Below are positions 4,140-39,246 of a stretch of DNA of 64,000 nucleotides, piece after piece. The position numbers and the translations under genes are program-made. The notes below the pieces were generated by a model. The model worked only from the letters and a program-made list of their open reading frames with translations. It searched no databases and was not told the origin of the DNA. Each line of letters begins with the position of its first letter. The first letter of the stretch is position 1. The DNA lies in contig CAVQLZ010000019.1 of assembly GCA_963713465.1 (NCBI GenBank), forward strand, positions 720,945-784,944, in the 5' to 3' direction. The DNA is from an uncultured Acidobacteriaceae bacterium (GTDB lineage Bacteria > Acidobacteriota > Terriglobia > Terriglobales > Acidobacteriaceae).

Positions 4140-4140
4140 A

Positions 4141-5354: not shown

Positions 5355-5355
5355 A

Positions 5356-5634
5356 ATGCGTGTTAGCTTCGACGCTCGCAAGAGCCGCGCTTTGCGGCAA
5401 AACCGGAAGCGAGGCGTCGGCTTTGAAGAGGCGCAGGAGATCTTCGAACATCCGTACTATCTCGATCAGCGCTCGGACCTGCCGTCGCAGTACCGCGCGA
5501 TTGGATGGGTTGGAGATCGGCTGTACACGCTCATCTTCGAAAGCAGGAGTGATGAAGCCGGTGAGTACTACCGCCTGGTGACTCTCTGGAAAGCGACGCG
5601 CGAGGAGCAGCAACTTTATGAAGAAAATTCGTGA
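5356..5634 (+). CDS. brnT: BrnT-family toxin, copy 2
   Basis: 92 aa, with 3 aa differences from copy 1 (I->V, E->R, I->S). Confidence 0.85.
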   Translation: MRVSFDARKSRALRQNRKRGVGFEEAQEIFEHPYYLDQRSDLPSQYRAIGWVGDRLYTLIFESRSDEAGEYYRLVTLWKATREEQQLYEENS

Positions 5635-5902
5635 TACTCGGAAGCCCGTTTCTGCCGAGGCCATCGCCCGGCTTGCTGACAAAGGGGAGAACGTCTCCCG
5701 CTTTTTCACCAATGCCGGACGCATGATGCCGCCCATCCAGCGAGTGAATGTGGACTTCACGGCGCCGATGCTCTCTGAGCTCGACAACGCAGCCACGGAG
5801 CTGAACATCAGCCGCCAGGCGGTAATCAAGACGCTGTTGCGACAGGCGCTCGATCAGCATTATCTCGCGCGCAGCGCCGCGCCGCGAGCGAAGCGAGCCT
5901 AA
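5618..5902 (+). CDS. brnA: BrnA-family antitoxin, copy 2
   Basis: 94 aa, with 2 aa differences from copy 1 (T->I, T->N). Confidence 0.85.
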   Translation: MKKIRDTRKPVSAEAIARLADKGENVSRFFTNAGRMMPPIQRVNVDFTAPMLSELDNAATELNISRQAVIKTLLRQALDQHYLARSAAPRAKRA

Positions 5903-6100
5903 CGGTTCGCCCGCTATAGTTGACCGCTGCGAAGTCCGCCGCGGCGGATCGGTTGTCCGTTGTCGGATGCGGATAGTCGCAATGCTCGTCAGGCCTCGCG
6001 TGGACACAGTGCCGAAGGCACGACAGATGATAGCCCAGCGTTTCAACGCTGGGTACGCGTGATAAAAGAAGCCGAGTCCCTTCAGGGACGGCACAGCCCT

Positions 6101-17072: not shown

Positions 17073-17144
17073 CGGCCGCAGTCGTCGGCGGCGCGCTTAA
17101 TCCCGCAACGGTCGAGTGCTAAAGCAGTTTCAGAATTGGTGTAT

Positions 17145-17282
17145 CCAGGTAGAGCGAGCCTTTAGGCTCGCGTTCGGTGGACCGCCGGAGATAGGTTTTG
17201 CATTCCGCTGCCTTCGCAGCGGAATGCAAAACCGAGAATCAGAGGCGGCCTTAACGCGGCGCTGAAGCGCCGCTCTACCAGG
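17145..17282. repeat. MITE-like composite palindromic element (family D)
   Basis: Terminal inverted repeat ccaggtagagcg / cgctctaccagg enclosing three internal hairpins (gagcc-ttta-ggctc, gcattccgctg-ccttcg-cagcggaatgc, gcggcgc-tgaa-gcgccgc). Confidence 0.6.
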
Positions 17283-17409
17283 ACACACGAAATCCGGAAC
17301 GGCTAACCCTTACGACTTTAGTATCCTGCGACCCTGCCCCTTGTGACTTTTATCACAGCTAGCAGATTGAGGTTATGGCTAAGGTTATTAAATGTGTCTA
17401 AGGAGCGGC

Positions 17410-20157
17410 ATGGCCCGGACCGTAGAAGAAGTCAACCTCTCGCCCAGCGATCACGATCCATCTCTGGATAGGCTGGCGGAAAACGAAGAACGATTTCGGC
17501 AACTGTTGGAGGCGCTGCCGGAAGCCGTTCTGGTGAACAGCAACAACAAAATAGTCTTTGTCAATCCCTTCTGCGTTCGACTATTCGGTGCGCGGGAACC
17601 GGAGCAGCTTCTTGGCAGAGGCGTTTCCGATTTCGTAGGCGCCTCTTACCTGCCGCTGGTAAGGAGTCGCATGCAGGCGTGCTACTCGAGCGGACTGGCC
17701 GCTCCTCCCATGGAATTGACGGCGATCGCCTGCGATGGCTCGCGCGTGGCTATCGAAGCTGCTGCCACTGCAATCTCCTGGAACGGAGCGCCAGCCATCG
17801 CGGTGGTTCTGCGTAACGTCAGGGAACGCAAGCGGGCGCAGGCGGCGGCCCGAGAATGGCAGAAACGCCTGGAACTGGCGCAGAAGGCCGGCCTGCGGAT
17901 CGGATTGTGGGACTGGGACGTCGGCGCCCACACGGTGACTTGGTCCAACGAAAGCTACCGCCAGTTCGGATTCGAACCCGATACCTTTTCCGGCCGGGTA
18001 GAGGATGTTGCTCCAAGACTTCATCCCGAGGACCGGGCCCGAGTCGAAGAGGCAATCGGGAAAGTCGTGGCGGGCGGCGGAGAGTACGCAGCCCAGTATC
18101 GAGTGGTGCGCCCGGATGGAACGACGTGCTGGATCGATGCCCACGGCGTATTGGTGGGCGATGGTTCGCCGCACATGATCGGCGTTGGGGTCGATATCAC
18201 CGATTCCAAGCGGGCGGAGCAGTCACTGCACGACAGCGAGGCAAAGTATCTGCTGTTGTTGAATTCGACCGCGGAAGCCATTTACGGAATCGATCTAAAG
18301 GGGAACTGCACATTTTGCAATGCAGCGTGCGTAAACCTGTTGGGCTACTCCGCTCCGGAAGACCTGCTTGGGAAAAATGTGCATGCCCTGATACACCACA
18401 CGCGACCCCACGGCGGTTATTACCCCGAGTCAGAATGCGAAATCTATGCAGCCGTACGTAAAGGCAGGCCTGGTCACGTGGCCTGTGAAGTACTGTGGCG
18501 AGCGGATGGTACCAGCTTTCCGGCGGAGTACTGGTCTTATCCGATGTACAAGGCCGGTGAACTCGTCGGCGGGGTGGTCACTTTTCTCGATATCTCGGAG
18601 CGCAAGCAGGCGGAAGAATCGCTGCGCACATCGGAAGAGAAATACCGCAAGCTGTTCGAGAACGCCACCTACGGCATCTTTCGATCGGAGCGGGACGGAA
18701 CTTTGCTGGACGTGAACCCGGCCCTGGTGAGCATGCTGGGTTACCGTTCAAGAGAGGAGTTGCTGGCGCGCAATTTAAGCCGCGACATCTATGAAGACCC
18801 AGCCGCGCGTCAGTCGATTCTGGAGCGGTACGGTCCCAGCGGGCGCGTGGACGGTGCCGAAGTCAATTGGAAATGCAAAGATGGCAAGCTCATCGTTGTT
18901 CGGATAAGCGGAGGGGCGGTCCGCCTGGCGAACGGCACAATCAGCCATTTCGAAGTCATCGTCGAGGACGTGACGGAACGGCGGAGGCTGGAGGAGCAAT
19001 TCCGCCAAACGCAGAGGATGGAGGCGATCGGGCTTTTGGCGGGAGGAATCTCGCACGAATTCAATAACCTTCTGGCCGTCATTCTTGGCAATTCCGAACT
19101 TCTGCTCGACACCCCACAATCCGGAGCCCAGCAACGCTATGCGGAGGAGATCAGGAAAGCCAGCGACCGCGCGGCCCTATTGACCCGACAGTTGTTGGCC
19201 TTTAGCCGGAAACAAGTGCTCCACCCGATTGTCCTCGACCTGAATACAGTGGTGCGCGAGATGGCAAAAGTCCTGCAACGCATGCTGGGCGAGGACGTGC
19301 GGGTTGTGACTACTTTGCAGAAGCGACCAGGGTCGGTCAGGGCAGATCGCGGACAAATCGAGCAGATACTAATGAACCTGGCTACGAACGCGCGCGATGC
19401 CATGCCCGATGGCGGCAAATTTTCCATCTGCACCGAAAATGCCGCAGTGAGCGAGGCCGACGCGGCTCGACATCCTGACCTCAAGCCCGGACGTTACGTT
19501 CGACTCTCGGTGAGCGACACGGGCGTGGGAATGAGCGAGGAGGTGCGCTGCCGCGTTCTGGAACCTTTCTTCAGCACGAAACCCATCGGGCAGGGCACCG
19601 GGCTGGGCCTGTCAACGGTATACGGAATGGTTAAACAGAGCGGTGGTTGTATTTCGATTACGAGCGCACTCGGAGCTGGGGCCACTTTCGACATCTATCT
19701 TCCCCGCACGGAGGAGAAGCCCGTCATACTATCTACCGACGTATTCGAGGTGCGAAGCGAATACCCGGGAGGAACGGAGACCATTCTGTTGCTAGAAGAC
19801 GAGGACGCCGTACGGCAAGTTACCTACGAATTTCTTGTCGCCAGTGGCTATAACGTCCTGCAAGCCCGGCGCGGGGACCATGCCTTTGAGCTGGCCGGAC
19901 TGTACCCCGGTTGCATTTCTCTGATCATCAGCGACGTGGTGCTGCCTGACATGAATGGACCCGCAGCGGTGAAGAGAGTGCAGGCATTACACCCCGGAGC
20001 CAAAGCCTTATATGTCTCCGGACATGTCGAAGCCGCGGTGGCGCAACAACTGATTGCGGAGAAAGCAATGCTCATGCAGAAGCCGGTGTCGCGAAGAGAC
20101 CTGCTGGGGAAAGTTGACGAAATCCTTCATCCGGCCGCGTCGCTCGGCTATCAGTAA
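17410..20157 (+). CDS. hybrid sensor histidine kinase / response regulator with multiple PAS domains
   Basis: H-box HEFNNLL, N box NLATNARDAM, G2 box GTGLGLSTVYG and a C-terminal receiver (LLLEDED...SDVVLPDMNG...K). aaggag lies before ATG 17410, and the ORF is open from 17392. Confidence 0.9.
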   Translation: MARTVEEVNLSPSDHDPSLDRLAENEERFRQLLEALPEAVLVNSNNKIVFVNPFCVRLFGAREPEQLLGRGVSDFVGASYLPLVRSRMQACYSSGLAAPPMELTAIACDGSRVAIEAAATAISWNGAPAIAVVLRNVRERKRAQAAAREWQKRLELAQKAGLRIGLWDWDVGAHTVTWSNESYRQFGFEPDTFSGRVEDVAPRLHPEDRARVEEAIGKVVAGGGEYAAQYRVVRPDGTTCWIDAHGVLVGDGSPHMIGVGVDITDSKRAEQSLHDSEAKYLLLLNSTAEAIYGIDLKGNCTFCNAACVNLLGYSAPEDLLGKNVHALIHHTRPHGGYYPESECEIYAAVRKGRPGHVACEVLWRADGTSFPAEYWSYPMYKAGELVGGVVTFLDISERKQAEESLRTSEEKYRKLFENATYGIFRSERDGTLLDVNPALVSMLGYRSREELLARNLSRDIYEDPAARQSILERYGPSGRVDGAEVNWKCKDGKLIVVRISGGAVRLANGTISHFEVIVEDVTERRRLEEQFRQTQRMEAIGLLAGGISHEFNNLLAVILGNSELLLDTPQSGAQQRYAEEIRKASDRAALLTRQLLAFSRKQVLHPIVLDLNTVVREMAKVLQRMLGEDVRVVTTLQKRPGSVRADRGQIEQILMNLATNARDAMPDGGKFSICTENAAVSEADAARHPDLKPGRYVRLSVSDTGVGMSEEVRCRVLEPFFSTKPIGQGTGLGLSTVYGMVKQSGGCISITSALGAGATFDIYLPRTEEKPVILSTDVFEVRSEYPGGTETILLLEDEDAVRQVTYEFLVASGYNVLQARRGDHAFELAGLYPGCISLIISDVVLPDMNGPAAVKRVQALHPGAKALYVSGHVEAAVAQQLIAEKAMLMQKPVSRRDLLGKVDEILHPAASLGYQ

Positions 20158-20457
20158 GCTTCCATTTGCCGCGGCCGATTGCTCAGCGTGCGTCCCGTTG
20201 TCGGGTACGCGTCGAAGAAACCGGCGATGTGTCGGCAATGACACACGGTCTCTAGAATTCCTGCGCGTGCCTCGTTGAGTTGGTGCCGTACGCGCCAAGT
20301 CGCGCCGCTCGACGCATTTCTTAGTGAAACTCACGAATTATCACCAGCGCCTGTGTCGTTCGTCACCGACCGCCTTTTGGCAAGTGTTCTATTGGTGTCT
20401 CCATCAGCAGTTTCCGCAATCAATCTCACTCCCGGGAAGGGCAAAGAGGAAACCGCC

Positions 20458-20838
20458 ATGAACCCACCTTTCGAGAATCCGTTTGCCAGCATCGAAGACG
20501 CGCATGAATACCTCACGCTATTAGCCGAGACCATTTTCGAGACCAAACTCGAAATCGAAGCCGACGTCGCAAGAGAATCCGACGGGAACTTCCCCCGCCG
20601 CACGGAAGCCTTGAAGCTTGCGTTGTACACGCTGACCAGGCTGGAATTCCACATGCTCAGGAGCCGAAGAATTCTGAACGACCTGCGCACGCTGCGGCGG
20701 CTGCTGTTTGAAGAGCGGACGCTTACGGCCATGACGCAGAGGCCGCAGGCCGACGGCCAGGCGCGAGCCGAGACCCTCTATTCCGCCGCGACCTATCGGT
20801 CGCTGCACCCGGTGAACGGTCCCGTCGCCAGCGCGTGA
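20458..20838 (+). CDS. hypothetical protein (126 aa)
   Basis: ATG 20458 is preceded by aagagga. No family recognised. Confidence 0.5.
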   Translation: MNPPFENPFASIEDAHEYLTLLAETIFETKLEIEADVARESDGNFPRRTEALKLALYTLTRLEFHMLRSRRILNDLRTLRRLLFEERTLTAMTQRPQADGQARAETLYSAATYRSLHPVNGPVASA

Positions 20839-20851
20839 ACAAGGTTCGCGT

Positions 20852-22093
20852 TCACCCCAGGTATCGCAGGAAATGCCCCGGCGAGTTGTCGAAGCCGGGG
20901 AACACGGCGTTGAGCTGCGTATTGCCGAGGTGATGCGCGACGGCCTCGCCCAGCACGCGACGGAAATCGGTGGTGAGCGCGAGATCGCGGCCCTCGTTGA
21001 GCTGGGAGGGATCGAGGCCGGGCCAGCGTCCGTAGACGCGGCCGCCGCGCACCCGGCCGCCGAGGACGAACATCACGTTGGCGTGACCGTGGTCGGTGCC
21101 GCGATTGCCATTCTCGCGCGCCGTGCGCCCGAACTCCGACATGGTGACGATTACCGTGTCCTCGCCCAGAGGACCGAGGTCGGTCCAGAAGGCGGCGATG
21201 GATTGCGAGAAGTCGCGCAGGACGTTCGACAGTTGCCCCTCGACAGCGCCTTCGTTCACGTGGTGGTCCCAGCCGCCGATGTCGGTAAAGGCGATCTGTA
21301 CGCCGAGGTTCGCTTTGATGAGTTGCGCCGTCTGCCGCAGCGCATCCCCAAATCGGCCCTTGGGATAATTGGCGCCGGGCGCGGGCGTGTAGTGTTGCGG
21401 GTCGGCTGACTTCAGCATCTTGACGGCGTCGAAGGTTTCCTGGCCGGTGCCGTGCAGCACCGTGTCGACCGATTGCGCGTACATGGCTTCGAACGTATTG
21501 CCGAGCGGTGCGGCTGCGGCATTGCCGCCGGCGATTCCAAACGAGTTGACGTTGCTTACCGCGACGGCCGAAGCCTTACCGGAGAGAATGCGCGGCAGCG
21601 ACGGCCCGAGAGCCACGGCCTGAAACGGAGAATCAACGGGCTCGTGTTCCGTTTGCAATGTGCGATTCAGCCATCCGTCCTGCGTGCTCTTCACGCCCGG
21701 CGTGCCCGATTCCATGTAGTCTTGCGCGTCAAAGTGAGAGCGCGTAGTGTCCGGCGAGCCGGCGGCGTGCACGATCGCGAGATGCCCCTCGTCCCACAGC
21801 GGCTTGAATGACGCGAGCGAGGGATGCAGCCCGAAGAAGCCGTTAAGGTCGATGACCTGCGCGCGCGGGATGTTGATGCTAGGCCGCATGGCGTAGTACG
21901 ACGGCTCGGCGTGCGGGACGACGATGTTCAATCCGTCGGCTGCGCCGCGTTGGAAGATGACCACCAGCCGCTTGTTGGCCGGTGAGCTGACGGCGCCCCA
22001 AGCAGCGCGAGTAAGAAAGGATGGAACGGCCGCCGTGCCGACAACCGCCATGGCGCCGTGTTTGAGAAATGCGCGTCGAGTAAGCATAAGCAA
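20852..22093 (-). CDS. DUF1501 (sulfatase-like) protein with Tat signal
   Basis: TRRAFLKHG twin-arginine motif, plus the GSPDTTRSHFDAQ, GGWDHH and GTDHGH motifs. Confidence 0.85.
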   Translation of the reverse strand: MLMLTRRAFLKHGAMAVVGTAAVPSFLTRAAWGAVSSPANKRLVVIFQRGAADGLNIVVPHAEPSYYAMRPSINIPRAQVIDLNGFFGLHPSLASFKPLWDEGHLAIVHAAGSPDTTRSHFDAQDYMESGTPGVKSTQDGWLNRTLQTEHEPVDSPFQAVALGPSLPRILSGKASAVAVSNVNSFGIAGGNAAAAPLGNTFEAMYAQSVDTVLHGTGQETFDAVKMLKSADPQHYTPAPGANYPKGRFGDALRQTAQLIKANLGVQIAFTDIGGWDHHVNEGAVEGQLSNVLRDFSQSIAAFWTDLGPLGEDTVIVTMSEFGRTARENGNRGTDHGHANVMFVLGGRVRGGRVYGRWPGLDPSQLNEGRDLALTTDFRRVLGEAVAHHLGNTQLNAVFPGFDNSPGHFLRYLG

Positions 22094-22230
22094 TCAGCAA
22101 CCAGCAAAGATCAGCAAATTCAGCAACTAGCGACTAGCGGCGAAAGCGAAAACCATGGCTTGCTTTCAAAGACAGCAACGACTGCGTGATACAAGAAACC
22201 AGTTGCTAGTTGCTAGTTGCTAATTGCTGG
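22088..22230. repeat. heptamer-arm inverted repeat (AGCAACT / AGTTGCT words)
   Basis: Left arm ...cagcaaattcagcaactagcgactagcgg. Right arm ccagttgctagttgctagttgctaattgctgg. It lies between two co-directional minus-strand genes. Confidence 0.8.
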
Positions 22231-22232
22231 TT

Positions 22233-24119
22233 TCACTTCCTTTGAAACTCTGGCGAGCCCAGCAGCAGGCCCGCAATCACGTTGATGTTCGGCGGGTGAT
22301 TCCCTGGCTGCGCTTCGGCCGCCGTTTCCGGTGCGACAATCTGCCGCTCAATGGTGTCGTGTGTCTGCTGCGAGATGTTGCCCGCCAGCAACGCCTGCTC
22401 CAACTGAAGCTGCGCCTCATAAGGGTCAGAGTCCGCCACGGGTAGCGTCGCCGGAGCGCTCATCAGTTGCGCAACATCGAAACTGGTCCCCTGCAGCTTG
22501 TTGGCGGTCAGCGCCAGGCCGAAGTTCATGCGATCAAGCAGCGCCGCCGAGTTCACCCACACCCCCGATTTCGTGGAATAGCCGGTGGGAGGCTGACATC
22601 CATAAAGCGGCTCGCCCATCCTGTTCAGGGTGCCAAGCAGCGGCTGCGGGTCGGTGACCTCGGCCTCGGTGGCGCGCAATGACGACGCAACAAATTCGAA
22701 CGGCGTCTTCACACGCGCGCGATACACATCCGGCGTCCAGAATTCCGGCGATCGAAACATGGTGCGCAGTACCTCGCGGATGTCGCCGTCGCTCTTCAGG
22801 AATGTCTTTGCCATAGCGTTGACCAGCGACTGCGGCGGATTGTCGGAGACGAAGCGCTGCGCCAGTTCGGTCGAGATGAACCGTGCCGTGGCCGGCTGAT
22901 GCGCGAGCATGTTCAGCACCTGCAAGCCCTCGTCCTCGCCATCTTCTTTTATGCGGTGGCCGAGGACGGTCTTGGGGCCGGGCTCATGCAATCGCGGACG
23001 GAAGATGAAGCCGCCGCCGCGCTGCGGCTCATCGATGGTCCAGCCGGTAAAGACGCGCGCGACTTCGGTAACGTCTTTCTGGGTGTAGCCGCCGTTGACG
23101 CCTAGCGTGTGCAGCTCCATCAGCTCGCGCGCGTAGTTCTCGTTCAATCCGCTGCGGCGGCGCGGACCCGGGTTAGCGCCCGATGGACGCGAACCTGCGG
23201 CACCAGGCTGCGGGTAGAGCCAGGGACGTCGTGCGCGGTTCGGTATGGCCGGATGCGCGGGACGACCCAGCGCCGCATCGGAGTTGGGACCCTCGCTTTG
23301 CCAGTTGTCCAAGTAGAACAGCATGGCCGGGCTCTGCGCGGTCGCAATCAGCAGGTCCTTGAACTTGCCCAGCACTCGCGGACGAATCACGTCGCGCTCG
23401 TAGGCCGTCACCAGGTAACGGTCCGCGCCCTTGCCGATGAAGATATTGAAGTGATTGAACCAGAAATCGGTGAGCACTTCCTCCAACTGCCGCTGGCTGT
23501 ACACCGCGCGCAATAGCTTCGCCGACTGCACTTCCTGATCGACCACCGCCTCGGGATGGTTCAGCGCGATCACCGTTTCGCGCTGCTCGGGCGAAAGCCC
23601 AGCCAGCAGCGCCTGCCGCTTGGGATACGGAATGGCTTGCAGCAGGTCGTGCTGCTCAGCCACCGGCAGGTTGAGGATGCGTTGCATCCGCGCTTCGGGC
23701 GGCAGCGCGATCAGCTCGTCAACTACGCTGCGCGCCTCGCGGCGGGCGAGTTGCCTATGGGCAAGATCAGCCGCCGGGACATGGCTCGCAGAGGCATTCA
23801 TTGCCATTGCGGAATCGTTGGTACTCGCAGCGGCAGGCGACACGGCGCCCGTGACCGCATTCTGTTTTTTATCTTGCTTCTCCTCAACCCGGTCGATGGC
23901 AGCCGCGTAGATCGCGTGCTCGTAAACACCTTGCGGCATCGCGAGCTTGCCATCCATCACGGCTTTAGCTACAGGATTGGGAGGAAAGGCGAAGACCATC
24001 TGCCGCGTGCTCATCTGCAGCGTGCGATAACCCGCGATCCGCGCCTGCATCGCACTGTCGTCGATTCTCTCGGGATGAAGCTGCTGATCGATCCATTTAT
24101 CCACGCCCATCGCCATCAC
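22233..24119 (-). CDS. DUF1800 protein (as called; the true 5' end is probably at 24290, with a frameshift)
   Basis: 628-aa ORF adjacent to the DUF1501 gene, which is the usual pairing. See the finding for the displaced signal peptide. Confidence 0.85.
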   Translation of the reverse strand: MMAMGVDKWIDQQLHPERIDDSAMQARIAGYRTLQMSTRQMVFAFPPNPVAKAVMDGKLAMPQGVYEHAIYAAAIDRVEEKQDKKQNAVTGAVSPAAASTNDSAMAMNASASHVPAADLAHRQLARREARSVVDELIALPPEARMQRILNLPVAEQHDLLQAIPYPKRQALLAGLSPEQRETVIALNHPEAVVDQEVQSAKLLRAVYSQRQLEEVLTDFWFNHFNIFIGKGADRYLVTAYERDVIRPRVLGKFKDLLIATAQSPAMLFYLDNWQSEGPNSDAALGRPAHPAIPNRARRPWLYPQPGAAGSRPSGANPGPRRRSGLNENYARELMELHTLGVNGGYTQKDVTEVARVFTGWTIDEPQRGGGFIFRPRLHEPGPKTVLGHRIKEDGEDEGLQVLNMLAHQPATARFISTELAQRFVSDNPPQSLVNAMAKTFLKSDGDIREVLRTMFRSPEFWTPDVYRARVKTPFEFVASSLRATEAEVTDPQPLLGTLNRMGEPLYGCQPPTGYSTKSGVWVNSAALLDRMNFGLALTANKLQGTSFDVAQLMSAPATLPVADSDPYEAQLQLEQALLAGNISQQTHDTIERQIVAPETAAEAQPGNHPPNINVIAGLLLGSPEFQRK

Positions 24120-24493
24120 GGCATCGACGTCGCCGGGACGTGGTCCGAAGGTGAGACGGTCGAGAGCATGTAACGCGCGCTGCCGCTGCTCGGCCGCGGA
24201 GGTAGGCTTCTGCTTCTTGGCATAAACGAGAACGCACAGGCGCGCACAACACCATCAGCAGAGCGAGGCAGAAGCTTTTCCGGCGCGCCATAGCAGTTCC
24301 CTTCCGCGTTCCCTCTTTATAAACCTGAATATCAGCAAAAGTTTCAGCAGAACGCACAGGCTTGTCGGCAAGCGTCCCCACAAAGCAGCCTCAAAGGGTA
24401 GATGTCGCGGACCGGGCGACCATATCGAGCGCTTGCACCACGTCGCACTAGCCAGTCTTGCGGCTCCACAGTGCATCAAACAGCAATGGCGCG

Positions 24494-24910
24494 ATGCAAA
24501 GCTATCATCTGATCCTGAAGACTGCGGCCGTTGCTTTCGTGGTGATGGTCACCAATGTATTCGGCAATTATGCGTTGAAGCTTGGCCTGAGCAACGGCGC
24601 CGGCGTCGGCGCAAGCTGGGCGCCCATGCCCTACATCCGCGCGCTCGCCCATCCCTGGGTCATCGCCGGCGTACTCCTGATGCTGGCGTGGTTCATTTCG
24701 CGGCTCATGCTGCTCAGTTGGGCGGACCTGAGTTACGTCCTTCCCGTTACCGCCTTCTCTTATGTGCTGAGTGCCCTCGCAGGCGCTATTTTGCTGCATG
24801 AAACCGTGTCGCCGGTTCATTGGGTGGGCATTGGCCTGATCACGCTGGGGACCGGCTTCACCATCTTCACCCGTCCCGGAACTACGCCCCCCGGTGGCGT
24901 CGACTTATGA
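24494..24910 (+). CDS. small EamA/DMT-like membrane protein (half-size)
   Basis: Four predicted hydrophobic helices. ATG 24494 lies within ORF 24458-24910. Confidence 0.6.
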   Translation: MQSYHLILKTAAVAFVVMVTNVFGNYALKLGLSNGAGVGASWAPMPYIRALAHPWVIAGVLLMLAWFISRLMLLSWADLSYVLPVTAFSYVLSALAGAILLHETVSPVHWVGIGLITLGTGFTIFTRPGTTPPGGVDL

Positions 24911-25269
24911 AATGGATGCTGGTTGCGCTGGTCGTCGTTCCCGGCACCATCGGCGATGTGTTGAACAGCGCCGGCATGAAGCGGCAGGGCGAGCTCACGG
25001 ACTGGAGCCTGCACGGCCTGCTGTGCTTCGCGCGCGACGTTGCGCAGAACTGGTACATCCTCCTGGGCATGCCGGCGATGGCGCTTTCCTTCTTCGCGCT
25101 GATGGCACTGCTCTCCACCACAACGCTGGCCTTCGCCGTGCCCGCCACCGCCAGCAGCTACATCATCGAGACTGGCCTGGCCGAGTACCTGCTGAAAGAA
25201 AAAGTCGATTGGCATCGCTGGGCAGGCACAATCCTGGTCGCCATCGGCATCAGTCTACTGGCGCTTTGA
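24907..25269 (+). CDS. small EamA/DMT-like membrane protein (half-size)
   Basis: ATGA overlap with the upstream stop. 120 aa with four hydrophobic helices. Confidence 0.6.
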   Translation: MKWMLVALVVVPGTIGDVLNSAGMKRQGELTDWSLHGLLCFARDVAQNWYILLGMPAMALSFFALMALLSTTTLAFAVPATASSYIIETGLAEYLLKEKVDWHRWAGTILVAIGISLLAL

Positions 25270-26451
25270 ATGCACGACCTACTCTCCATCGCCAAGAACG
25301 GCATCCTCATCGCCATTGTCGCCGACGGGCTGATTGGCATTTCGCTCGTCTGGGACAAGGTGCTGTTGAAGCGCAAAGGTACCAGGAACCTGTTCAGCTA
25401 TGTCTTCTGGCTGGGAGCGATCAGCATCTTCGGGTTGGCGCTCATCCCGTTCGGCTACAACTCCCCCTCACTGTCTGCGATTGTGCTTGCCTTCGTCGCC
25501 GGTGTGGTCGACTTGATCGCTTCGTTCTTCTACTACGCGGCCTTGAAGTCGGGCGAGGCCTCGGAAACGCTGGCCGTCATGGGCGGCTTCTCGCCGGTGG
25601 CCACGGCGGTCTTCAGCTACGCACTGCTGAGCAAGCAGATGTCCGGAATGCAGCTAATCGGCTTCCTGATTATGTGTACGGGCGGGTTCGTGATGTTCTT
25701 CTCCGAGAAGCTGCCGCTGAAGCAGTTGCTGCCTCCGGTGATTTTGGCGGCGGGCTTTTTCGGGCTGGCCAATGTGCTGGAGAAGATGGCTTACGATCGT
25801 ACGAATTTCGTCAGCGGTTATGTGTGGTTCACCATCGGAACCTTCCTGGCGTCGGTCGCGCTACTGGTACCGCCGTCGTGGCGAAAACAGATTTTCGCCG
25901 AGTCAGGGGGCGACGAGCCGCGCAACCGCTTCTGGTATTTCGTGAATCGCTTTGTGGCGGGAGTTGGGTCCTTCCTGGTGGTCTACGCCATCAGCCGCAC
26001 TCATCCGGCGATCGTGTCGGCCATTTCGGGCGTGCGCTACGCCATCATCTTTGTCGGGGCGTTGATGCTGACGAAGCTAAGGCCAAGCTGGCTGAAAGAG
26101 GATTTCCGCACGCCGCAGCTCATAACCAAAGCTGTGGCGACAGGGTTGGTGGTCGCAGGGGTAGCCATCGCCGGACTGGGCGGCGGCAAGACCGGCGGCG
26201 GAGGACCGGCGGCGATGGTGATACCGCGCTCCATCCTCGTGAGAACGGGATCAGGTCCGGTCGGTGCGGTCGGCTTTCAGAACTCCACCGCGGGCGTAAT
26301 TCTCGCGCGGCACCTCGATGAGTGTGATGGACACCGCCTCGGGCTTAACTTCAAGCTCCTCGCACAAAGTCTCGGTGATGCGGCTGACCACTCGCCGCTT
26401 CTGCTCCACCGTGCGGCCCGTCAGCATCGTGATCTGCACATGCGGCATTGA
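25270..26451 (+). CDS. DMT-superfamily (EamA-like) 10-TM transporter with a long non-hydrophobic tail
   Basis: Ten hydrophobic segments up to about residue 300. The last 65 or so codons are antisense to the tautomerase gene. Confidence 0.65.
   Translation: MHDLLSIAKNGILIAIVADGLIGISLVWDKVLLKRKGTRNLFSYVFWLGAISIFGLALIPFGYNSPSLSAIVLAFVAGVVDLIASFFYYAALKSGEASETLAVMGGFSPVATAVFSYALLSKQMSGMQLIGFLIMCTGGFVMFFSEKLPLKQLLPPVILAAGFFGLANVLEKMAYDRTNFVSGYVWFTIGTFLASVALLVPPSWRKQIFAESGGDEPRNRFWYFVNRFVAGVGSFLVVYAISRTHPAIVSAISGVRYAIIFVGALMLTKLRPSWLKEDFRTPQLITKAVATGLVVAGVAIAGLGGGKTGGGGPAAMVIPRSILVRTGSGPVGAVGFQNSTAGVILARHLDECDGHRLGLNFKLLAQSLGDAADHSPLLLHRAARQHRDLHMRH
26251..26448 (-). CDS. 4-oxalocrotonate tautomerase family enzyme
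   Basis: 65 aa starting MPHVQITMLTGRTVEQKRR. It has the Pro-1 and the length typical of the family. Confidence 0.8.
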   Translation of the reverse strand: MPHVQITMLTGRTVEQKRRVVSRITETLCEELEVKPEAVSITLIEVPRENYARGGVLKADRTDRT

Positions 26452-26463
26452 GAGTTCTAAAGC

Positions 26464-26577
26464 AACCACAGAGACACAGAGGCACAGGGTAAGGCAATCA
26501 CAATTTCTGGTCACTTCTGAAACGTGCGTTGAAGCCGACGACTAAGACCAGAGTTTTACCTCTGTGTCTCTGTGGTT
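26464..26577. repeat. perfect 19-bp inverted repeat with low-complexity arms (aaccacagagacacagagg / cctctgtgtctctgtggtt)
   Basis: Read directly. It lies immediately 3' of ndk. Confidence 0.85.
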
Positions 26578-26586
26578 AAGCCTTCC

Positions 26587-27012
26587 TTACTTCGCGAGTT
26601 CGTATCCGGCGAAGAAGTAGCTGATTTCGAAGCGCGCGGTGTCTTCGGCATCGGAGCCATGCACCGCGTTCTTCTCGATGCTCGACGCCCACTTCTTACG
26701 GATAGTGCCCTCGTCGGCCTTCGCCGGATCGGTCGCGCCCATCAACTTGCGGTAGTCGGCGATGGCATCTTCCTTCTCCAACGCCATGACGATGATCGGA
26801 CCGCTCGACATGAAGTCGGTCAGCGACTCGAAGAATGGCCGGTGTATGTGCACCGCGTAGAAGCCTTCGGCCTGGTGCTTGTTGATGTGCAGCATCTTCA
26901 TGCCGACGATGCGAAACTTGTTTTCGAGTAAGGTGTTGATAATGTCGCCCGCCGCGCCGCGTTCGAAGGCGTCGGGCTTGATGATGGAAAGAGTGCGTTG
27001 CAGGGTCTTCAT
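26587..27012 (-). CDS. ndk: nucleoside-diphosphate kinase
   Basis: 141 aa. [10 protein letters not shown]...NAVHGSD active-site region. Confidence 0.95.
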
Positions 27013-27035
27013 TCGTAGTTAGGTCCTCGTGTTGT

Positions 27036-27116
27036 CGCTATTCGCTCTTCGCTCTTCGCCAGAAAGCGGACCAGGGAATTCTCTGGCGAAAAGCGAAGAG
27101 CGAACCGCGAATAGCG
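27036..27116. repeat. heptamer-arm inverted repeat (CGCTCTT words)
   Basis: cgctattcgctcttcgctcttcgccag / ctggcgaaaagcgaagagcgaaccgcgaatagcg. The arms differ by one heptamer unit. It lies 3' of sucD. Confidence 0.8.
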
Positions 27117-27119
27117 TCC

Positions 27120-28001
27120 TTACTTCATCACCGCGGCTTGCGCCTTCACCAGCGTCTCGCCGATCTCGGCGGGCGACTTCGCAACGTGTATCCCTGCCGC
27201 CTGCATCGCCTTGATCTTCTCCGCCGCCGTTCCCTTCCCGCCGGAGATGATCGCGCCCGCGTGGCCCATGCGGCGTCCCGGAGGCGCGGTCTGCCCGGCG
27301 ATGAAACCCACTACCGGCTTGCGCACGTTTTGCCGGATGAACTCTGCCGCGACTTCTTCGGCGTTGCCGCCGATTTCGCCGATCATCACGATGGCTTCCG
27401 TTTCGGGATCGTCGTTGAATAACCGAATCGCATCGACGAAGTTCGTGCCGATGATGGGATCCCCGCCAATGCCGATGGCCGTCGATTGCCCGATGCCGCG
27501 CGTCGTCAACTGATAAACGGCCTCGTACGTCAGTGTGCCCGAGCGCGAGACGATGCCGACGTTCCCTTCCTTATGTATATGTCCTGGCATGATGCCGATT
27601 TTGCACCTGCCGGGCGAGATGATGCCCGGACAATTCGGCCCGATCAGCCGCGAGTTCTTCGACTTCAGGAACTCCCACGCGTTCACCATGTCGAGCGCCG
27701 GAATGCCTTCCGTGATGCAGACGATCAGCGCCACGCCGGCATCGGCAGCTTCCATGATGGCGTCGGCCGCGCCCGGCGGCGGAACGAAGATCACGGTCGC
27801 GTTGGCGCCGGTCTTGGCGACTGCTTCGCTTACTGTGTTGAAGATGGGCCAGCCCTCGTGCGTCGTGCCGCCCTTGCCGGGAGTCACGCCGCCGACAACG
27901 TTCGTTCCATAGGCGACAGCGTTCTTGGCGTGAAACGTTCCTTCACGTCCGGTCAGTCCCTGCACCAGCAGGCGTGTCGATTTATCAACCAGAATGCTCA
28001 T
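27120..28001 (-). CDS. sucD: succinate--CoA ligase subunit alpha
   Basis: [24 protein letters not shown]...GHAGAI phosphohistidine loop. ATG 28001 lies within ORF 27120-28037. Confidence 0.95.
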
Positions 28002-28218
28002 AGTTTTTCCCACTCTCCTTCGCAGTCGGCCGCACACGTGAGGACAACGCGAGTCCCGTGGCAGGTGCCATGGCAGTCCTGTTGGAAGTTCGTTGTCCGG
28101 ACGCTGTTTTCACAACTGAGTTCCAGACAGGTGAGAACCCAGGCCTCGTCGCCCAGATTCGATGTCATCGGGCTGGGCTTGTGAGATGGTTTGTCGAAGG
28201 TAATCGTCGTAACGCCCA

Positions 28219-29394
<1,176 letters not shown>

Positions 29395-29440
29395 GTTGGT
29401 ATGACGACTGGGACAACTTGGTCCCGCCCGCATGTTCAAC

Positions 29441-29496
29441 CGCGAACAACAAAAGCAGGTCCCTCGACTCCGCTTCATTACGCTCGCGATGACAAA
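29441..29496. repeat. family C repeat unit
   Basis: cgcgaacaacaaaagcaggtccctcgactccgc...cgctcgcgatgacaa. Confidence 0.6.
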
Positions 29497-29595
29497 CCGG
29501 GCAGTCCGGCCGGCTCGGCCGGATTTTGTCTGCTCCTTAAGGATGGCGTACAGCCGGGAAACTAGCGATTGTATAGGACGGAGCGAAGGTGAGGC

Positions 29596-30713
29596 TAGTG
29601 AACTGTCGCAAAGTAACCATTACTAGCTGTTAAGCTTCTAAGTTGGTATGGCGATAGACAGCGGAGTCTTCCTCACCAGTGACCAACATTCCGAACTCAG
29701 CAGCATTGCGCAATCGCGTTCTTTGCCTGCCGGGTACGTCTTTCGCGCCAAGCTCATCCTGATGCTGGCCGAAGGCGCTTCCTTCAACACCATCAAACGA
29801 TGCCTGCAAACCAGTGCGCCTACTATCATTCGCTGGAAACAGCGGTTCCTCCAGTCCGGGATCGATGGACTCGACACCTATCATCCCGGCCAGAAGGCCA
29901 CGGTTCTGACGGCTAGCTTGCGCGCCCGGATCCTTTCCGCCACGCGCAAGAAACCCGGCGACGGCTCCACGCATTGGAGTTGCCGCAAACTGGCGGTCGC
30001 TCTGGGCGTCAGCAAAGATGCCGTGCATCGGGTCTGGAAGGAAGCGGGTCTCAAACCTCACCGTCTGCAGCGCTACATGGCCAGCGACGACCCCGAGTTC
30101 GAACGCAAAGCCGCCGACATCATCGGCCTGTACCTGAATCCGCCGCAGCACGCAGCCGTCTTCTGTGTCGACGAAAAAACCGCCATTCAAGCCCTCGATC
30201 GACTCGACCCGGTCCTGCCGCTCTCGCCGGGACGTGCTGAGCGTCATGGCTTCGAGTATTACCGACATGGCACGCTTTCTCTGTATGCGGCGCTCGACAC
30301 CAAGACCGGACGCGTGCACGGAAAAACTGCCGCCCGCCATACCAGCCGCGACTTCGTCGCCTTCCTGGAAGAAGTCGTGTCTTTGTGTCCGCCTCGCCAG
30401 CACATCCATATCATCCTCGACAATCTCGCCGCCCATAAGACTCGACTGGTTCGCGATTTCCTCCAATTGCATCCCCGCATACAGTTTCACTTCACCCCGA
30501 CCTACTCTTCCTGGCTCAACCAAGTCGAAATCTGGTTCGCTAAAATTGAGCGCGAGGTCATTGCCCGCGGCATCTTCTCTTCCGTCCCCGATCTGGCCCG
30601 CAAACTCCGGCGCTACATCAACGCCTACTCAGCCAACGCCCGCCCGATCCGGTGGAAATACTCCGATCCTTCTCGCCGCCTACGTACTAACGAATTCACT
30701 GCGACAGTCACTA
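29596..30713 (+). mobile_element. IS630-family insertion sequence with TA target duplication
   Basis: Imperfect terminal inverted repeats gtgaactgtcgcaaagt (29598-) and actgcgacagtcac (-30711), each flanked by TA (29596-29597 and 30712-30713). It carries a single DDE transposase ORF. Confidence 0.8.
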
Positions 30714-30751
30714 GTGCGCTGCGTCACAGAACCTCTGTGTACGTGAACTGA
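29648..30751 (+). CDS. IS630-family DDE transposase
   Basis: 367 aa. N-terminal HTH region, then VDEKT...ILDNLAAHK...SWLNQVE (D,D,E). Confidence 0.85.
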   Translation: MAIDSGVFLTSDQHSELSSIAQSRSLPAGYVFRAKLILMLAEGASFNTIKRCLQTSAPTIIRWKQRFLQSGIDGLDTYHPGQKATVLTASLRARILSATRKKPGDGSTHWSCRKLAVALGVSKDAVHRVWKEAGLKPHRLQRYMASDDPEFERKAADIIGLYLNPPQHAAVFCVDEKTAIQALDRLDPVLPLSPGRAERHGFEYYRHGTLSLYAALDTKTGRVHGKTAARHTSRDFVAFLEEVVSLCPPRQHIHIILDNLAAHKTRLVRDFLQLHPRIQFHFTPTYSSWLNQVEIWFAKIEREVIARGIFSSVPDLARKLRRYINAYSANARPIRWKYSDPSRRLRTNEFTATVTSALRHRTSVYVN

Positions 30752-30867
30752 ATCCCGGACAACCAAGCACGCACGGTAAGCTGCCGTCTCTCGCGCTTTA
30801 GTATCAACGCGAATTTTTTTCTGCGATTTGACACCTCCCATCAGTGCGGAATTGTATGGTGTAGGCT

Positions 30868-31407
30868 ATGCAACGCCGTCCCAAAGCGAGCTCTCAGATG
30901 ACACGAACATTAGCTGTCGTTTTCCTCTGCTTTTCATTCAGCACGTTGACTCTCGCCCAACATACGCGCATCGAGTGGGACCACGATACCGACTTTGCCG
31001 GCCTACGCACCTACGGTTGGCAACCGAGCCCGAGTCCGGCAAAGGGCGTCTGGGACCAGCGCATCGTCGACGACATTGACAAGCAACTGCAAGCCAAAGG
31101 CCTGGCGAAAGTCGACTCCAATCCGGACGTTTGGGTCGTGTACACCAGAACCATTAAGAAGGACCGGAGCGACGTCAGCGGCGGGTACGTTGTTGGGCCC
31201 TGGGGTGACCCCGGCGTGCCCGCTATCCCCGAGACGTTCGAAGAAGGAACGTTAGTGGTTCAGATCGCCGCTACCAAGACGAAGCAGGTGGTCTGGCGCG
31301 GGTCGGCGAGCAAGACCCTCAGCGACAAGAGCAAGAAGAATCTCAAGAGCCTCGACAAGGCCATTGCTAAGCTGTTCGAGGACTATCCGCCGAAAGACAA
31401 GAAGTAG
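30868..31407 (+). CDS. DUF4136-like lipoprotein/secreted protein
   Basis: Signal peptide. The ...GTLVVQI......VWRG.A pattern is typical of DUF4136. An alternative ATG lies at 30898. Confidence 0.7.
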   Translation: MQRRPKASSQMTRTLAVVFLCFSFSTLTLAQHTRIEWDHDTDFAGLRTYGWQPSPSPAKGVWDQRIVDDIDKQLQAKGLAKVDSNPDVWVVYTRTIKKDRSDVSGGYVVGPWGDPGVPAIPETFEEGTLVVQIAATKTKQVVWRGSASKTLSDKSKKNLKSLDKAIAKLFEDYPPKDKK

Positions 31408-31488
31408 AGCCCGGCATGCAGTGCCCGTGCAGGAAGCGCTCGCACCTTTCTCCGTGTGATCTAAATCCTATCCGTCGGAGATTCGGGC

Positions 31489-32466
31489 ATGGATCCAGGA
31501 TTGAAAGACAAAGTGGTTCTCGTCACTGCAGCGAGCCAGGGAATTGGCCGGGCGATCGCGGAAGCGTTTGCTGCCGAGAAATCGAAAGTTGCCATCACGG
31601 CGCGTGGTGGCGATCACATCAAGAAAGCAGCACAGGAAATCGGCCAGAGCAGCGGCACGGAAGTGATCGGCCTAGCTGCCGATGCGTCGAAGGCAGAGGA
31701 CAACATCCGCATGGTGGACGAAGTAGTGAGACGCTTCGGAACGGTTCATGTGCTGGTGAACAATGCCGGTGGCGTGGGTGCTTTCGCCAGCTTCGATCAA
31801 CTCGCCGACGAGAATTGGCTCGACGTTCTCAACCTGAACGTGATGTCCGCGGTCCGCGCTACGCGCGCGGCTCTGCCTTACATGCAGCGGCAGAAATGGG
31901 GACGCGTCATCAACATTTCGAGCGAATCCGGCACGCAGCCCGATGCCGCCATGCCGCACTACAATGCCTCGAAGGCGGCAATCAATAACCTGACGAAGAG
32001 CCTGTCAAAGGCTTACGCCAAGGACGGGATTCTGGTGAACACAGTTTCGCCAGCGTTCATCATGACACCACTGCTTCAGGACATGCTGCAGAAGATGGCG
32101 CAGGAGCAGGGCGTCAGCTTCCAACAGGCCGTAGATGGCTTCCTTGCGACGAACCGGCCGCACATTGAGTTGAAGCGCCCGGGCGAGCCCGAGGAAGTCG
32201 CGTCAGCGGTGGTTTTTCTCGCCTCCGAACGGGCGTCTTTCATTACGGGCGCAAATCTGCGGCTGGACGGCGGCTCCGTGGCAGTGTGTAGTGCAGAGAA
32301 ATATCTCAGTGCCGGCGAGCCAGAGCGGCGCCATTTGTCTTCACTCCATTGCGACCGCTCCCGGCGCCGTCACGACGGCTCGACGAGAGATTGCCGGCCG
32401 CGCCCCCCAGCACCAGGCGGCAGACTTCCTCGATGTAGCGCTCGCTCAGTTCGTCGTGGCGGATGA
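31489..32466 (+). CDS. SDR-family oxidoreductase with a roughly 60-aa Arg-rich tail
   Basis: TAASQGIG cofactor motif, NNAG and the YNASK catalytic motif. The SDR fold ends near GANLRLDGGS (about 32275). The tail is antisense to the TetR gene 3' end. Confidence 0.85.
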   Translation: MDPGLKDKVVLVTAASQGIGRAIAEAFAAEKSKVAITARGGDHIKKAAQEIGQSSGTEVIGLAADASKAEDNIRMVDEVVRRFGTVHVLVNNAGGVGAFASFDQLADENWLDVLNLNVMSAVRATRAALPYMQRQKWGRVINISSESGTQPDAAMPHYNASKAAINNLTKSLSKAYAKDGILVNTVSPAFIMTPLLQDMLQKMAQEQGVSFQQAVDGFLATNRPHIELKRPGEPEEVASAVVFLASERASFITGANLRLDGGSVAVCSAEKYLSAGEPERRHLSSLHCDRSRRRHDGSTRDCRPRPPAPGGRLPRCSARSVRRGG

Positions 32467-32998
32467 GGAAGCGCATGTAAATCGCGCCGTAAAGAATGTC
32501 GAGCACCAGGTCGAGGTCAAGCGAGCGCGGCAGCTCGCCGCGCTCGCTTCCGCGGCGCAAGGTCTGATACGCCTCCTGGCGGCGGGGCCGAAGCAGGCGT
32601 TTGCGGAACTCCTCCAGCAGCTCGGGATCGGATTGTCCGGCGGCGACAATGGCGCGCACGATACAACCGCGGGGCGAGCGCAACACGCCAAGAAATTTGC
32701 TCATCTGGCGGGCCATGTCGCGGTAGACCGAGCCGCTGTCCGGGAAGTGCAGTTCGTCCTCGGTGCTGGAGGCAAAGGCGTCGACCACCAGCGCGCCCTT
32801 GTTCGGCCACCAGCGATAGACCGTGGCTTTGCCCACCCGGGCATCGGCGGCGATGGCTTCGATGGACAAATCGGCAAAGCTGCGCCGGCGCAGCAGCTTG
32901 ATGGTGCTGCGCAGGATCGATTGCCGTGCGTTTTCCGAGCGCGGCCGTCCCGGCGGGCGCTTACCGTTATTTGCGACGTATTGTCGAGAAGCGGGCAT
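32306..32998 (-). CDS. TetR/AcrR-family transcriptional regulator
   Basis: HTH SIEAIAADARVGKATVYRWWPNK. ATG 32998 lies within ORF 32306-33193. It is divergent from the RND operon. Confidence 0.85.
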   Translation of the reverse strand: MPASRQYVANNGKRPPGRPRSENARQSILRSTIKLLRRRSFADLSIEAIAADARVGKATVYRWWPNKGALVVDAFASSTEDELHFPDSGSVYRDMARQMSKFLGVLRSPRGCIVRAIVAAGQSDPELLEEFRKRLLRPRRQEAYQTLRRGSERGELPRSLDLDLVLDILYGAIYMRFLIRHDELSERYIEEVCRLVLGGAAGNLSSSRRDGAGSGRNGVKTNGAALARRH

Positions 32999-33008
32999 GA
33001 AGCAAAGA

Positions 33009-33115
33009 GTTGTCAGTTGTCGGTTGTCGGTCACAAACCACAGCATGACCGAGTTGTGGTCACCAGAGCCGCCGCAGTGTCCGCAACTGACAACTGACAA
33101 CCGGCAACTGACAAC
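33009..33115. repeat. heptamer-arm inverted repeat (CAGTTGT words) in a divergent promoter region
   Basis: gttgtcagttgtcggttgtcgg / caactgacaactgacaaccggcaactgacaac, with an inner hairpin accaca...tgtggt. Confidence 0.8.
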
Positions 33116-33128
33116 TGTTTCTTGAATC

Positions 33129-33145
33129 CGATACGTTCCGTATCG
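33129..33145. promoter_or_regulatory. 7-3-7 palindrome cgatacg-ttc-cgtatcg, candidate TetR operator
   Basis: Perfect inverted repeat between the TetR gene and the RND permease gene. Confidence 0.5.
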
Positions 33146-33214
33146 TATCATATCCTGTGTCCCTGCTTCTAACGCCAGCGCTCCGCGCGGCATTGCGGGA
33201 GTTACACCGAATCC

Positions 33215-36367: not shown

Positions 36368-36371
36368 AATA

Positions 36372-39244: not shown

Positions 39245-39246
39245 CG

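Follow-up and report, generated by a model that had tools for sequence, protein, structure and literature searches.

In the account that PMC4679880 and PMC4692102 give of the survey of Mrazek et al. (2007), heptanucleotides are the dominant unit among long simple sequence repeats (SSRs; units of 5 to 11 nt), which are enriched between the genes of free-living bacteria with large genomes and are attributed to polymerase slippage. In that account the arrays are single and direct, and inverted pairing, abutment to stop codons and conservation at orthologous loci are not described. In Xanthomonas, GGGAATC arrays form convergent pairs that are mostly intergenic (~90%), lie near the 3′ end of the upstream open reading frame (ORF), are rare between divergent ORFs (7 to 8%), have heterogeneous units (GGGANTN) and are mostly transcribed (Rehm et al. 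2015, PMC4692102). The (ATCTTTC)n repeat of hmw1A in Haemophilus influenzae forms a hairpin whose cleavage by RNase III controls expression and repeat dynamics (PMC12721329). The TAACTGA repeats of Beggiatoaceae, Cyanobacteria, and Bacteroidetes stand directly upstream of start codons devoid of a Shine-Dalgarno sequence (PMC4679880). Here we analyze inverted pairs of heptanucleotide arrays in a stretch of 64,000 nucleotides from an uncultured Acidobacteriaceae bacterium (order Terriglobales; assembly GCA_963713465.1, contig CAVQLZ010000019.1, positions 720,945 to 784,944 of the forward strand; hereafter the window), with particular attention to the hairpin that separates a DUF1800 gene from a DUF1501 gene (the focal hairpin).

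The focal inverted repeat fills the entire spacer between two minus-strand genes, DUF1800 upstream (22233-24119; Pfam PF08811, E = 9e−136) and DUF1501 downstream (20852-22087; Pfam PF07394, E = 1e−38). The 5′ arm in the mRNA (22199-22232, minus strand) is built of the sense word AGCAACT, is reported by Tandem Repeats Finder (TRF) at 22201-22232 with period 7 and 4.6 copies, and begins 1 to 3 nt past the DUF1800 stop codon (TGA, 22235-22233). It is followed by a loop of about 58 nt (22141-22198) with two small internal stems in the minimum free energy structure, and by the 3′ arm (22088-22140; words TTGCTGR and AGTTGCT; TRF 22089-22126), which ends right at the DUF1501 start codon (ATG, 22087-22085). 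The region 22085-22236 folds at −55.6 kcal/mol on the transcribed minus strand and at −54.3 kcal/mol on the other (z = −4.8 and −5.8).

As in Xanthomonas, two arrays of one unit lie close together in inverted orientation, in intergenic regions near the 3′ end of the upstream ORF and rarely between divergent ORFs. Array size (2 to more than 10 tandem units) is likewise shared, as are the proportion of arrays in close inverted pairs able to form stem-loops (about 40%) and a conserved position with varying length. Xanthomonas uses a single G-rich word with G-quadruplex potential, whereas the loci of this other phylum use dozens of words with a loose RRNAGCY core; those of the window (CAGTTGT, AGCAACT, GTTTCRA, TAGTGGA, CGCTCTT, etc.) contain no G3 tracts and do not qualify as G-quadruplex sequences. 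The acidobacterial stems also often extend over the entire spacer, from stop codon to start codon, and word turnover is documented at their orthologous sites. With hmw1A they share a heptameric SSR as an arm of a long, stable RNA hairpin (predicted stems of 20 to 35 bp; z from −3 to −8) in which repeat number sets stem length, and the hmw1A mechanism, i.e., RNase III cleavage with hairpin-dependent expansion and contraction, fits the geometry of the acidobacterial stems, which are known from sequence alone. However, hmw1A is a single phase-variable virulence locus with its repeat in the 5′ untranslated region and a G-rich stretch as right arm in place of a second heptamer array, whereas the acidobacterial hairpins occupy many housekeeping spacers, mostly 3′ of genes. 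An initial annotation of the window knew of no repeat class of this design; these two precedents (PMC4692102, PMC12721329) do not support the absence of one.

The short tandemly repeated repetitive (STRR) and TAACTGA repeats are likewise intergenic heptamer arrays. (TTGTCAG)n, which is the CAGTTGT word of the window, occurs 44 times in Nostoc PCC 7120 (PMC2408588), TAACTGA (TCAGTTA) is one mismatch away from that word, and the focal DUF1501 start also lacks a Shine-Dalgarno sequence and has an array directly upstream. These repeats are almost only direct, with one indirect set among 170 in a Beggiatoaceae genome (PMC4679880) and few pairs in Nostoc (PMC2408588), and use one or a few fixed words per genome, whereas 64 kb of the window hold about six word groups, mostly as inverted pairs. 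Our literature search found no description of heptamer hairpin elements in Acidobacteria. Repetitive extragenic palindromic (REP) sequences are 20 to 40 nt long, have a sequence conserved across the family with a GTAG or CGTC tag, and are mobilized by RAYT transposases. Like the heptamer hairpins, REP, BIME, and REPIN elements form stem-loops in intergenic regions, usually on the downstream side of genes, and are often transcribed; both kinds have proposed roles in mRNA stabilization and processing and may be alike in how they work. They differ in that the heptamer arms are periodic, locus specific and evolving in place; no sequence or tag is conserved across the loci, and no search for RAYT genes was made. 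An excess of heptamer SSRs as such has long been known, and inverted heptamer pairs are known from Xanthomonas; the present elements stand apart in that they use many words, have no G-quadruplex potential, belong to another phylum, span from stop to start and show word turnover at orthologous sites.

Inverted pairs of heptanucleotide microsatellites in intergenic spacers

A lag-autocorrelation scan (block shuffles as control; a run needs 15 or more self-matches out of 21 at lag 7) revealed 23 period-7 runs in the window versus 0.5 in the shuffles, an excess that the initial annotation had proposed to check. All other periods from 4 to 15 gave at most 6 runs each, save period 14, the double of 7 (15 runs). 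TRF reported period-7 arrays of 2.7 to 7 copies at nearly all the places where period-7 arms had been annotated, and the complementarity of the arms was recovered independently by a repeat search (inverted pairs 3896/3992, 5123/5212, 27035/27082, 33004/33093, 39254/39456, 26464/26559, and 60805/61003). The window was then combined with 80 loci of relatives (numbered L001 onward), giving a sample of 1.51 Mb from 81 genomes. The relatives' loci contained 160 period-7 runs, versus at most 29 for any other period, and the combined sample contained 177 period-7 arrays. Where a similar second array lay within 300 nt, it was inverted in 71 cases and direct in 3, and 53 of the 128 nonfocal arrays had an inverted match of at least 13/14, versus 4 in a composition control. 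The arrays, whose unit is iterated beyond chance and whose length changes in whole units, are therefore heptanucleotide microsatellites, mostly two inverted arrays per intergenic spacer, which let the transcript or the DNA fold into a stem of 20 to 35 bp with a loop of 20 to 170 nt. Heptamer-arm hairpins are a real, lineage-wide feature.

The arrays are placed nonrandomly. Ninety-three percent of the 177 are noncoding. Outside the focal spacer, 90 arrays lie between codirectional genes (64% of spacer length), 13 between convergent genes (15.5%), and 4 between divergent genes (20.5%), so that divergent spacers, with 3.7% of the arrays, are depleted about 5-fold. The edge of an array lies at most 10 nt from a stop codon in 34% of the cases (5.7% under random placement). 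The codirectional loci of the window are those of sucD-ndk, of an outer membrane factor gene and a DAO oxidoreductase gene, and of an M19 dipeptidase gene and a PPIase gene, together with arrays after an HD domain gene, a TonB-dependent receptor gene, and infC; the convergent ones are EamA/ndk, nusB/HATPase kinase, and M23/response regulator. The initial annotation had called the ndk, sucD, DUF1800, M19 dipeptidase, NusB, HATPase kinase, M23, and response regulator genes correctly, and arms do touch stop and start codons as it had said. The arrays were also considered as suppliers of stop codons in all frames (7 = 1 mod 3). This idea was dropped: a stop triplet is present in 20 of the 54 stop-adjacent words (about 30% for random words). 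The identity of the neighboring stop codons matches genome-wide usage.

The RNA folds of the paired window loci exceed those of dinucleotide shuffles in stability by 3 to 8 standard deviations, whichever strand is folded. Among the annotated pairs, 47124-47223 forms a weak hairpin (z = −1.6 and −1.0), and the fold of 45262-45380 is convincing on the plus strand only (z = −3.5 and −1.9). Over 33 hairpins, the sense fold beats the antisense fold in 22, with 278 versus 159 G-U pairs (P = 0.011). A purine-rich 3′ arm was rejected as a signal of the RNA strand, being present in 10 of 13 cases at the focal junction and in a nonsignificant 13 of 20 elsewhere (P = 0.22).

The initial annotation had seen a different and unrelated word at each locus, which overstates the diversity: the 14 window loci use about six word groups, and an alignment by expectation maximization of 67 unique words from the 81 genomes, over all rotations and both strands, revealed a common degenerate core, RRNAGCY (YNAG[C/T]WN on the other strand), with 5.44 bits versus 3.86 ± 0.11 for letter-shuffled words. 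TCAGTTG, CCAGTTT, CGAGTTT, TCAGCAA, CTAGCAA, and TCAGCAT are the window words that fit this core; CGCTCTT and GGATAGT fit it poorly. Two simpler rules were rejected. A palindromic core of 4 nt (AGCT, CTAG, or TCGA) is carried by 23 of 68 unique words (24.3 in controls), and homogenization to one word per genome is not apparent, since the distance between words is only slightly lower within genomes (2.21) than between them (2.53).

Evolution of the DUF1800-DUF1501 spacer

The DUF1800-DUF1501 spacer was compared in 66 genomes, the best relatives of the window's DUF1800 protein being metagenome-assembled genomes (MAGs) of Acidobacteriaceae with 68 to 74% identity. Most of the more distant relatives have a spacer of 17 to 39 nt with a plain AGGAG ribosome-binding site, and the ancestral spacer was of this kind, about 20 to 40 nt long with an AGGAG site. 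In about 40 genomes of the main clade, a hairpin of 60 to 250 nt runs from stop to start. The stop codon (AGA TAG CT...) is where its 5′ arm begins, and its 3′ arm terminates in AGGAGCTGTTTTATG. The arm words are clade specific (TAGCTNC with AGGAGCT, CAGCYRT, AGCTACG, GGCTCTT, TAGCAAT, and AGTGRAA) and the number of units varies across genomes; the arms are complementary throughout. The initial annotation had suggested comparing orthologous spacers to see whether the word or only the architecture is conserved, and here the architecture is kept while words and unit numbers change by clade.

The window's own clade (88 to 90% DUF1501 identity) has focal spacers that differ sharply from genome to genome, which indicates that turnover is fast and the element dispensable. 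L001 has (CAGTTGT)19 plus TTGCTRR; this nearly perfect array, directly after the DUF1800 stop (L001 11839-11985), is the largest expansion seen. L037 carries a REP-like insertion, and L046 has AGTGAGCAACGT at the place of the window's (AGCAACT)n. At the DUF1501 start of this clade (window 22085-22110, L001, and L037) there is no AGGAG Shine-Dalgarno sequence and TTGCTGR units stand directly before the start codon; sister clades keep AGGAGCT at this place.

Since the main-clade arms contain the local stop context and the Shine-Dalgarno heptamer, growth from a local seed is favored. The word of the sucD-ndk hairpin is conserved in L037, and other spacers also keep their own word among related genomes; words are thus inherited with the locus. 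One hairpin is present twice within the window (3896-4019 and 5123-5235), and the right arms of the two copies are exactly one 7-nt unit apart in length. The kept architecture, matches between loci limited to the arms, and this one-unit difference between paralogues agree with the proposal, made at the outset, of a local generating process or a constraint on structure in place of the spread of one sequence. Strain-level variants were sought by an exact-protein look-up of ndk, which gave no match. A metagenome scan with the EamA gene gave only relatives at 58 to 84% identity, with no conserved synteny and few arrays.

Origin and function of the hairpins

Our preferred explanation, to which we give a probability of about 0.5, is that the pairs are long RNA stems at cistron boundaries, tuned by slippage and acting as RNase III or stability elements. 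The loci are not dispersed copies of a mobile element: each evolves where it stands, gaining and losing 7-nt units by slippage, replicative or associated with transcription, and undergoing point changes, while its arms stay complementary. The focal arms of the main clade probably grew from TAGCT beside the stop codon and from the ribosome-binding-site sequence AGGAGCT, and expansion continues until coding sequence is met, for which reason the hairpins typically span from the upstream stop to just before the next start. In the mRNA, the stems would act as long double-stranded segments at cistron boundaries. Their size suits cleavage by RNase III and a block to 3′ exonucleases, so that they would determine where the transcript is processed and how stable the flanking cistrons are relative to each other, and unit number would tune stem length. 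The depletion in divergent spacers, the abutment to stop codons and the greater stability and G-U excess of the sense strand point weakly to action at the RNA level.

Several observations weigh against this explanation. Two window loci lie in divergent spacers, one between a tetR gene and an acrB-type efflux gene (33004-33120) and one upstream of an rlpA-like gene (54004-54089). The focal spacer of L002 and L046 is 27 nt long and has no hairpin, with no visible consequence, and a second Acidobacteriaceae contig set, obtained via the EamA gene (648 kb), holds only 15 arrays, the distribution over genomes being patchy; both suggest that the element is dispensable. A few groups of orthologous loci drive the figure for sense over antisense, these loci are not independent of one another, and the focal group has no such asymmetry (7 versus 7). 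We infer the RNase III or stability role purely from stem length and position, arm complementarity could be kept by quasipalindrome template-switch correction in place of selection, and the RRNAGCY core is unaccounted for by a purely structural role.

A broader version, which we hold to be rather doubtful, would make these lineage-specific, self-renewing microsatellite hairpins the general cistron-boundary element of Terriglobales. Arising by 7-nt slippage from seeds in stop contexts and Shine-Dalgarno sequences, they would bridge stop and start, be recognized by RNase III or by a factor reading the phase of RRNAGCY, stand in for the canonical terminators and REPs of other phyla, and serve as an evolvable rheostat in which repeat number sets how strongly adjacent genes are expressed relative to one another. 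If functional, the hairpins would be the main recognizable gene punctuation in a major and poorly studied soil phylum, and a natural case of a structure conserved while microsatellite dynamics rewrite its sequence. If not, they would be a clean system for asking why some lineages favor 7-nt slippage and the maintenance of quasipalindromes. They are relevant for the annotation of operons and 3′ ends in Acidobacteria MAGs, where the arrays are likely spots for assembly errors and strain-level length polymorphism.

The main rival explanation, which we regard as possible without thinking it probable, is that of a neutral mutational by-product: the lineage would favor 7-nt slippage, template switching would keep the arms complementary, and functionless hairpins would pile up where they are tolerated, downstream of genes and not in promoters. 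Heptamers are the commonest class of long SSRs in many bacteria, ascribed to an expansion bias and not to a function in the account given of the survey mentioned above (Mrazek 2007, via PMC4679880 and PMC4692102), and the fast turnover of word and length, the variable presence among close relatives, the patchy distribution and a strand asymmetry that is weak and nonindependent across loci are all as this explanation would have them. The bias of 71 inverted to 3 direct, the precise abutment to stop codons and the persistence of a stop-to-start hairpin at one junction in about 40 genomes despite complete word turnover nevertheless call for at least a strong structural bias, and template switching alone is not known to build periodic arms of 30 bp. 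Translational coupling is another possibility. The stem pairs the region after the stop with the next ribosome-binding region and brings stop and start together, so that a ribosome terminating upstream might open the next start, and at the focal junction of the main clade the arms do run from the stop codon to AGGAGCTGTTTTATG. When the 15 nt before the stop, the stop codon and the 12 nt after it were forced to be unpaired, predicted accessibility of the ribosome-binding site rose from 0.40 to 0.48 (P = 6e−4), and an equal-sized block in the middle of the spacer was without effect. This gain is small and vanishes at the window's own locus (0.44 to 0.41), so strong masking of the ribosome-binding site was rejected; the Shine-Dalgarno sequence lies outside the stem at sucD-ndk and M19-PPIase, and many of the loci are located in convergent spacers or consist of one array without a partner. 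Coupling of this kind is therefore unlikely as the general explanation. We think it more unlikely still that the arrays are binding sites, in which a DNA- or RNA-binding protein would read an AGC or AGY core every 7 nt and the inversion would offer a symmetric platform. Oligomeric RNA-binding proteins that read spaced triplets exist, for instance, HutP on UAG-N4 repeats, and the degenerate core, to which window words align as YNAG[C/T]WN, agrees with such a reader. The core is weak, however, with the two poor fits named above; words vary between loci of one genome almost as much as between genomes, and palindromic cores are not enriched.

The initial annotation had considered a terminator role plausible. 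Most arrays do sit just 3′ of stop codons, and A/T-tract flanks are present at three loci (3896-4019, 5123-5235, and 33004-33120), but an intrinsic terminator has a short GC-rich stem, a loop of 3 to 8 nt, and a U-tract. The loops of 20 to 170 nt and stems of 20 to 35 bp are outside this geometry, T-runs of 4 or more after the 3′ arm are at background level (3 of 33 hairpins versus 6.3%), and several hairpins are internal to apparent operons and extend as far as the start codon of the next gene. A consensus scan flags no locus, its sole overlap being a small stem in the loop of 33004-33120. As U-tracts are lacking, a role as canonical Rho-independent terminators is very improbable. In the same scan, consensus intrinsic terminators numbered 17 versus 17.5 in shuffles for 20001-40000 and 24 versus 19.9 for 44001-64000, and sigma-70 promoter motifs in these two segments were no commoner than in shuffled sequence; the organism may rely little on canonical hairpin-plus-U-tract terminators. 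Least credible of all are mobile elements of the MITE (miniature transposable element with inverted repeats) or REP type with terminal inverted repeats built of heptamers. Nearly identical arms, with the same CGG variant unit, are present at 3896-4019 and 33004-33120, the GGATAGT loci have partly common loops, and L063 has a similar arm-plus-loop sequence at two loci, so occasional copying is possible. Across the window and the relatives' loci, however, there are no families of many copies with common termini and interior, and no target site duplications or conserved termini were seen. Apart from one segmental duplication, matches between loci of a genome are only as long as an arm (21 to 36 nt), and the absence of loops common to loci makes MITEs unlikely, as do words inherited with the locus across genomes and arms that, at the focal junction of the main clade, incorporate the local stop codon and Shine-Dalgarno sequence. 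The data hence do not fit one or two MITE families, and the view of the initial annotation that no single mobile sequence had spread was borne out.

Individual loci of the window and neighboring elements

Three hairpins of the window are built of CAGTTGT. The first (3896-4019; inverted pair; z = −6.4 and −4.1) is flanked by GAAA...TTTTTC, and the second (5123-5235) is a paralogous copy recovered as an inverted pair and by alignment, with the shorter right arm. Their arrays, annotated at 3902-3950 and 5129-5174, are real; they are copies of one segmental duplication and do not count as independent. The third (33004-33120; inverted pair; z = −7.2), in the divergent tetR/acrB-type spacer, has arms nearly identical to those of the first, and the loops of the two are unrelated.

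On the minus strand, the sucD-to-ndk spacer is filled by a CGCTCTT/AAGAGCG hairpin (27035-27116; inverted pairs; z = −5), with the Shine-Dalgarno sequence GAGGA located 3′ of the stem. The weak ATAGTGG hairpin at 47124-47223 (minus strand; TRF) leads from the stop codon of the M19 dipeptidase gene (TAG, 47215-47213) in the direction of the PPIase start, again with its Shine-Dalgarno sequence (GAGGAG) 3′ of the stem. A TTAGCAG hairpin on the plus strand (39247-39481; inverted pairs and fold) extends from the stop of the outer membrane factor gene (TAG, 39242-39244) to the start of the DAO gene, whose ATG (39471) lies inside an arm; its loop contains a REP-like element. Between convergent genes, the TAGTGGA hairpin at 45262-45380 (TRF) overlaps the stop codons of both nusB and the HATPase kinase gene with its arms, and a GTTTCRA hairpin (60806-61037; inverted pairs; z = −7.8 and −7.6) with a loop of about 160 nt abuts the stop codons of the M23 peptidase and response regulator genes. 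A second GTTTCRA hairpin (54004-54089; TRF; z = −2.6 and −2.0) occupies the divergent spacer upstream of the rlpA-like gene.

According to TRF and folding, two arrays have no partner: 4.6 perfect copies of CAGTTTC on the plus strand, 3 nt after the stop of the HD domain gene (3249-3292), and a TAGTGGW array on the minus strand at the stop (TAG, 51235-51233) of the TonB-dependent receptor gene (51203-51238). A short TTCGCTN array (63783-63817, plus strand; TRF and lag-7 scan), 2 nt after the infC stop, had been missed by the initial annotation. The convergent genes EamA and ndk are separated by a perfect inverted repeat of 19 bp (26464-26577; z = −4.1 and −6.3), which pairs over 19 of 19 positions as annotated and has the same architecture; its unit (26464/26559), however, is 8 nt long (CACAGAGA, 2.6 copies in TRF), and it is not a heptamer array.

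The segmental duplication is in tandem (~3610-4330 and ~4840-5560, ~96% identical over 211 aligned columns). In both copies, a heptamer hairpin is accompanied by an Acido-Lenti-1 motif and by a gene for a BrnT-like toxin, which is followed by a small ORF (4141-4419 and 4403-4687 in the first copy, 5356-5634 and 5618-5902 in the second). An Rfam scan found only three Acido-Lenti-1 RNAs (RF01687; 41 to 61 bits, above the gathering score), all on the minus strand (4020-4065, 5236-5281, and 6008-6053) and beside hairpins without coinciding with them. The first and second border directly on heptamer hairpins, the first on that at 3896-4019, and a degenerate GTTGTC array comes after the third at ~5940-5975.

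REP-like hairpins, which are GC-rich and have CTTTAG/CTAAAG loops (e.g., CGCCGGGCTTTAGCCCGGCG), form a separate family found in clusters at 48668-48917, 17123-17304, and 39297-39408, with flanking tags GGTGGAAG/CTTCCACC. A degenerate pattern built for these hairpins gave no excess over chance. Copies lie inside loops of heptamer hairpins (39297-39408) and in the focal spacer of L037, L012, L026, L067, and L069.

In L029 (1275-1712), what lies between the inverted heptamer arrays is an ORF of about 124 codons in place of a noncoding loop, and apparent orthologues are present in L038 (2144-2572), L041 (1972-2436), L048 (408-856), L071 (904-1356), and L072 (1121-1592). This arrangement could in principle form a long-range stem around a whole small gene, and within the group folding is much better on the sense strand than on the antisense strand. 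A repeat of another kind, with a period of 29 nt and 4.3 copies (8422-8550), is located at the 5′ end of a TIR domain gene (Pfam TIR_2; ORF 8448-9368).

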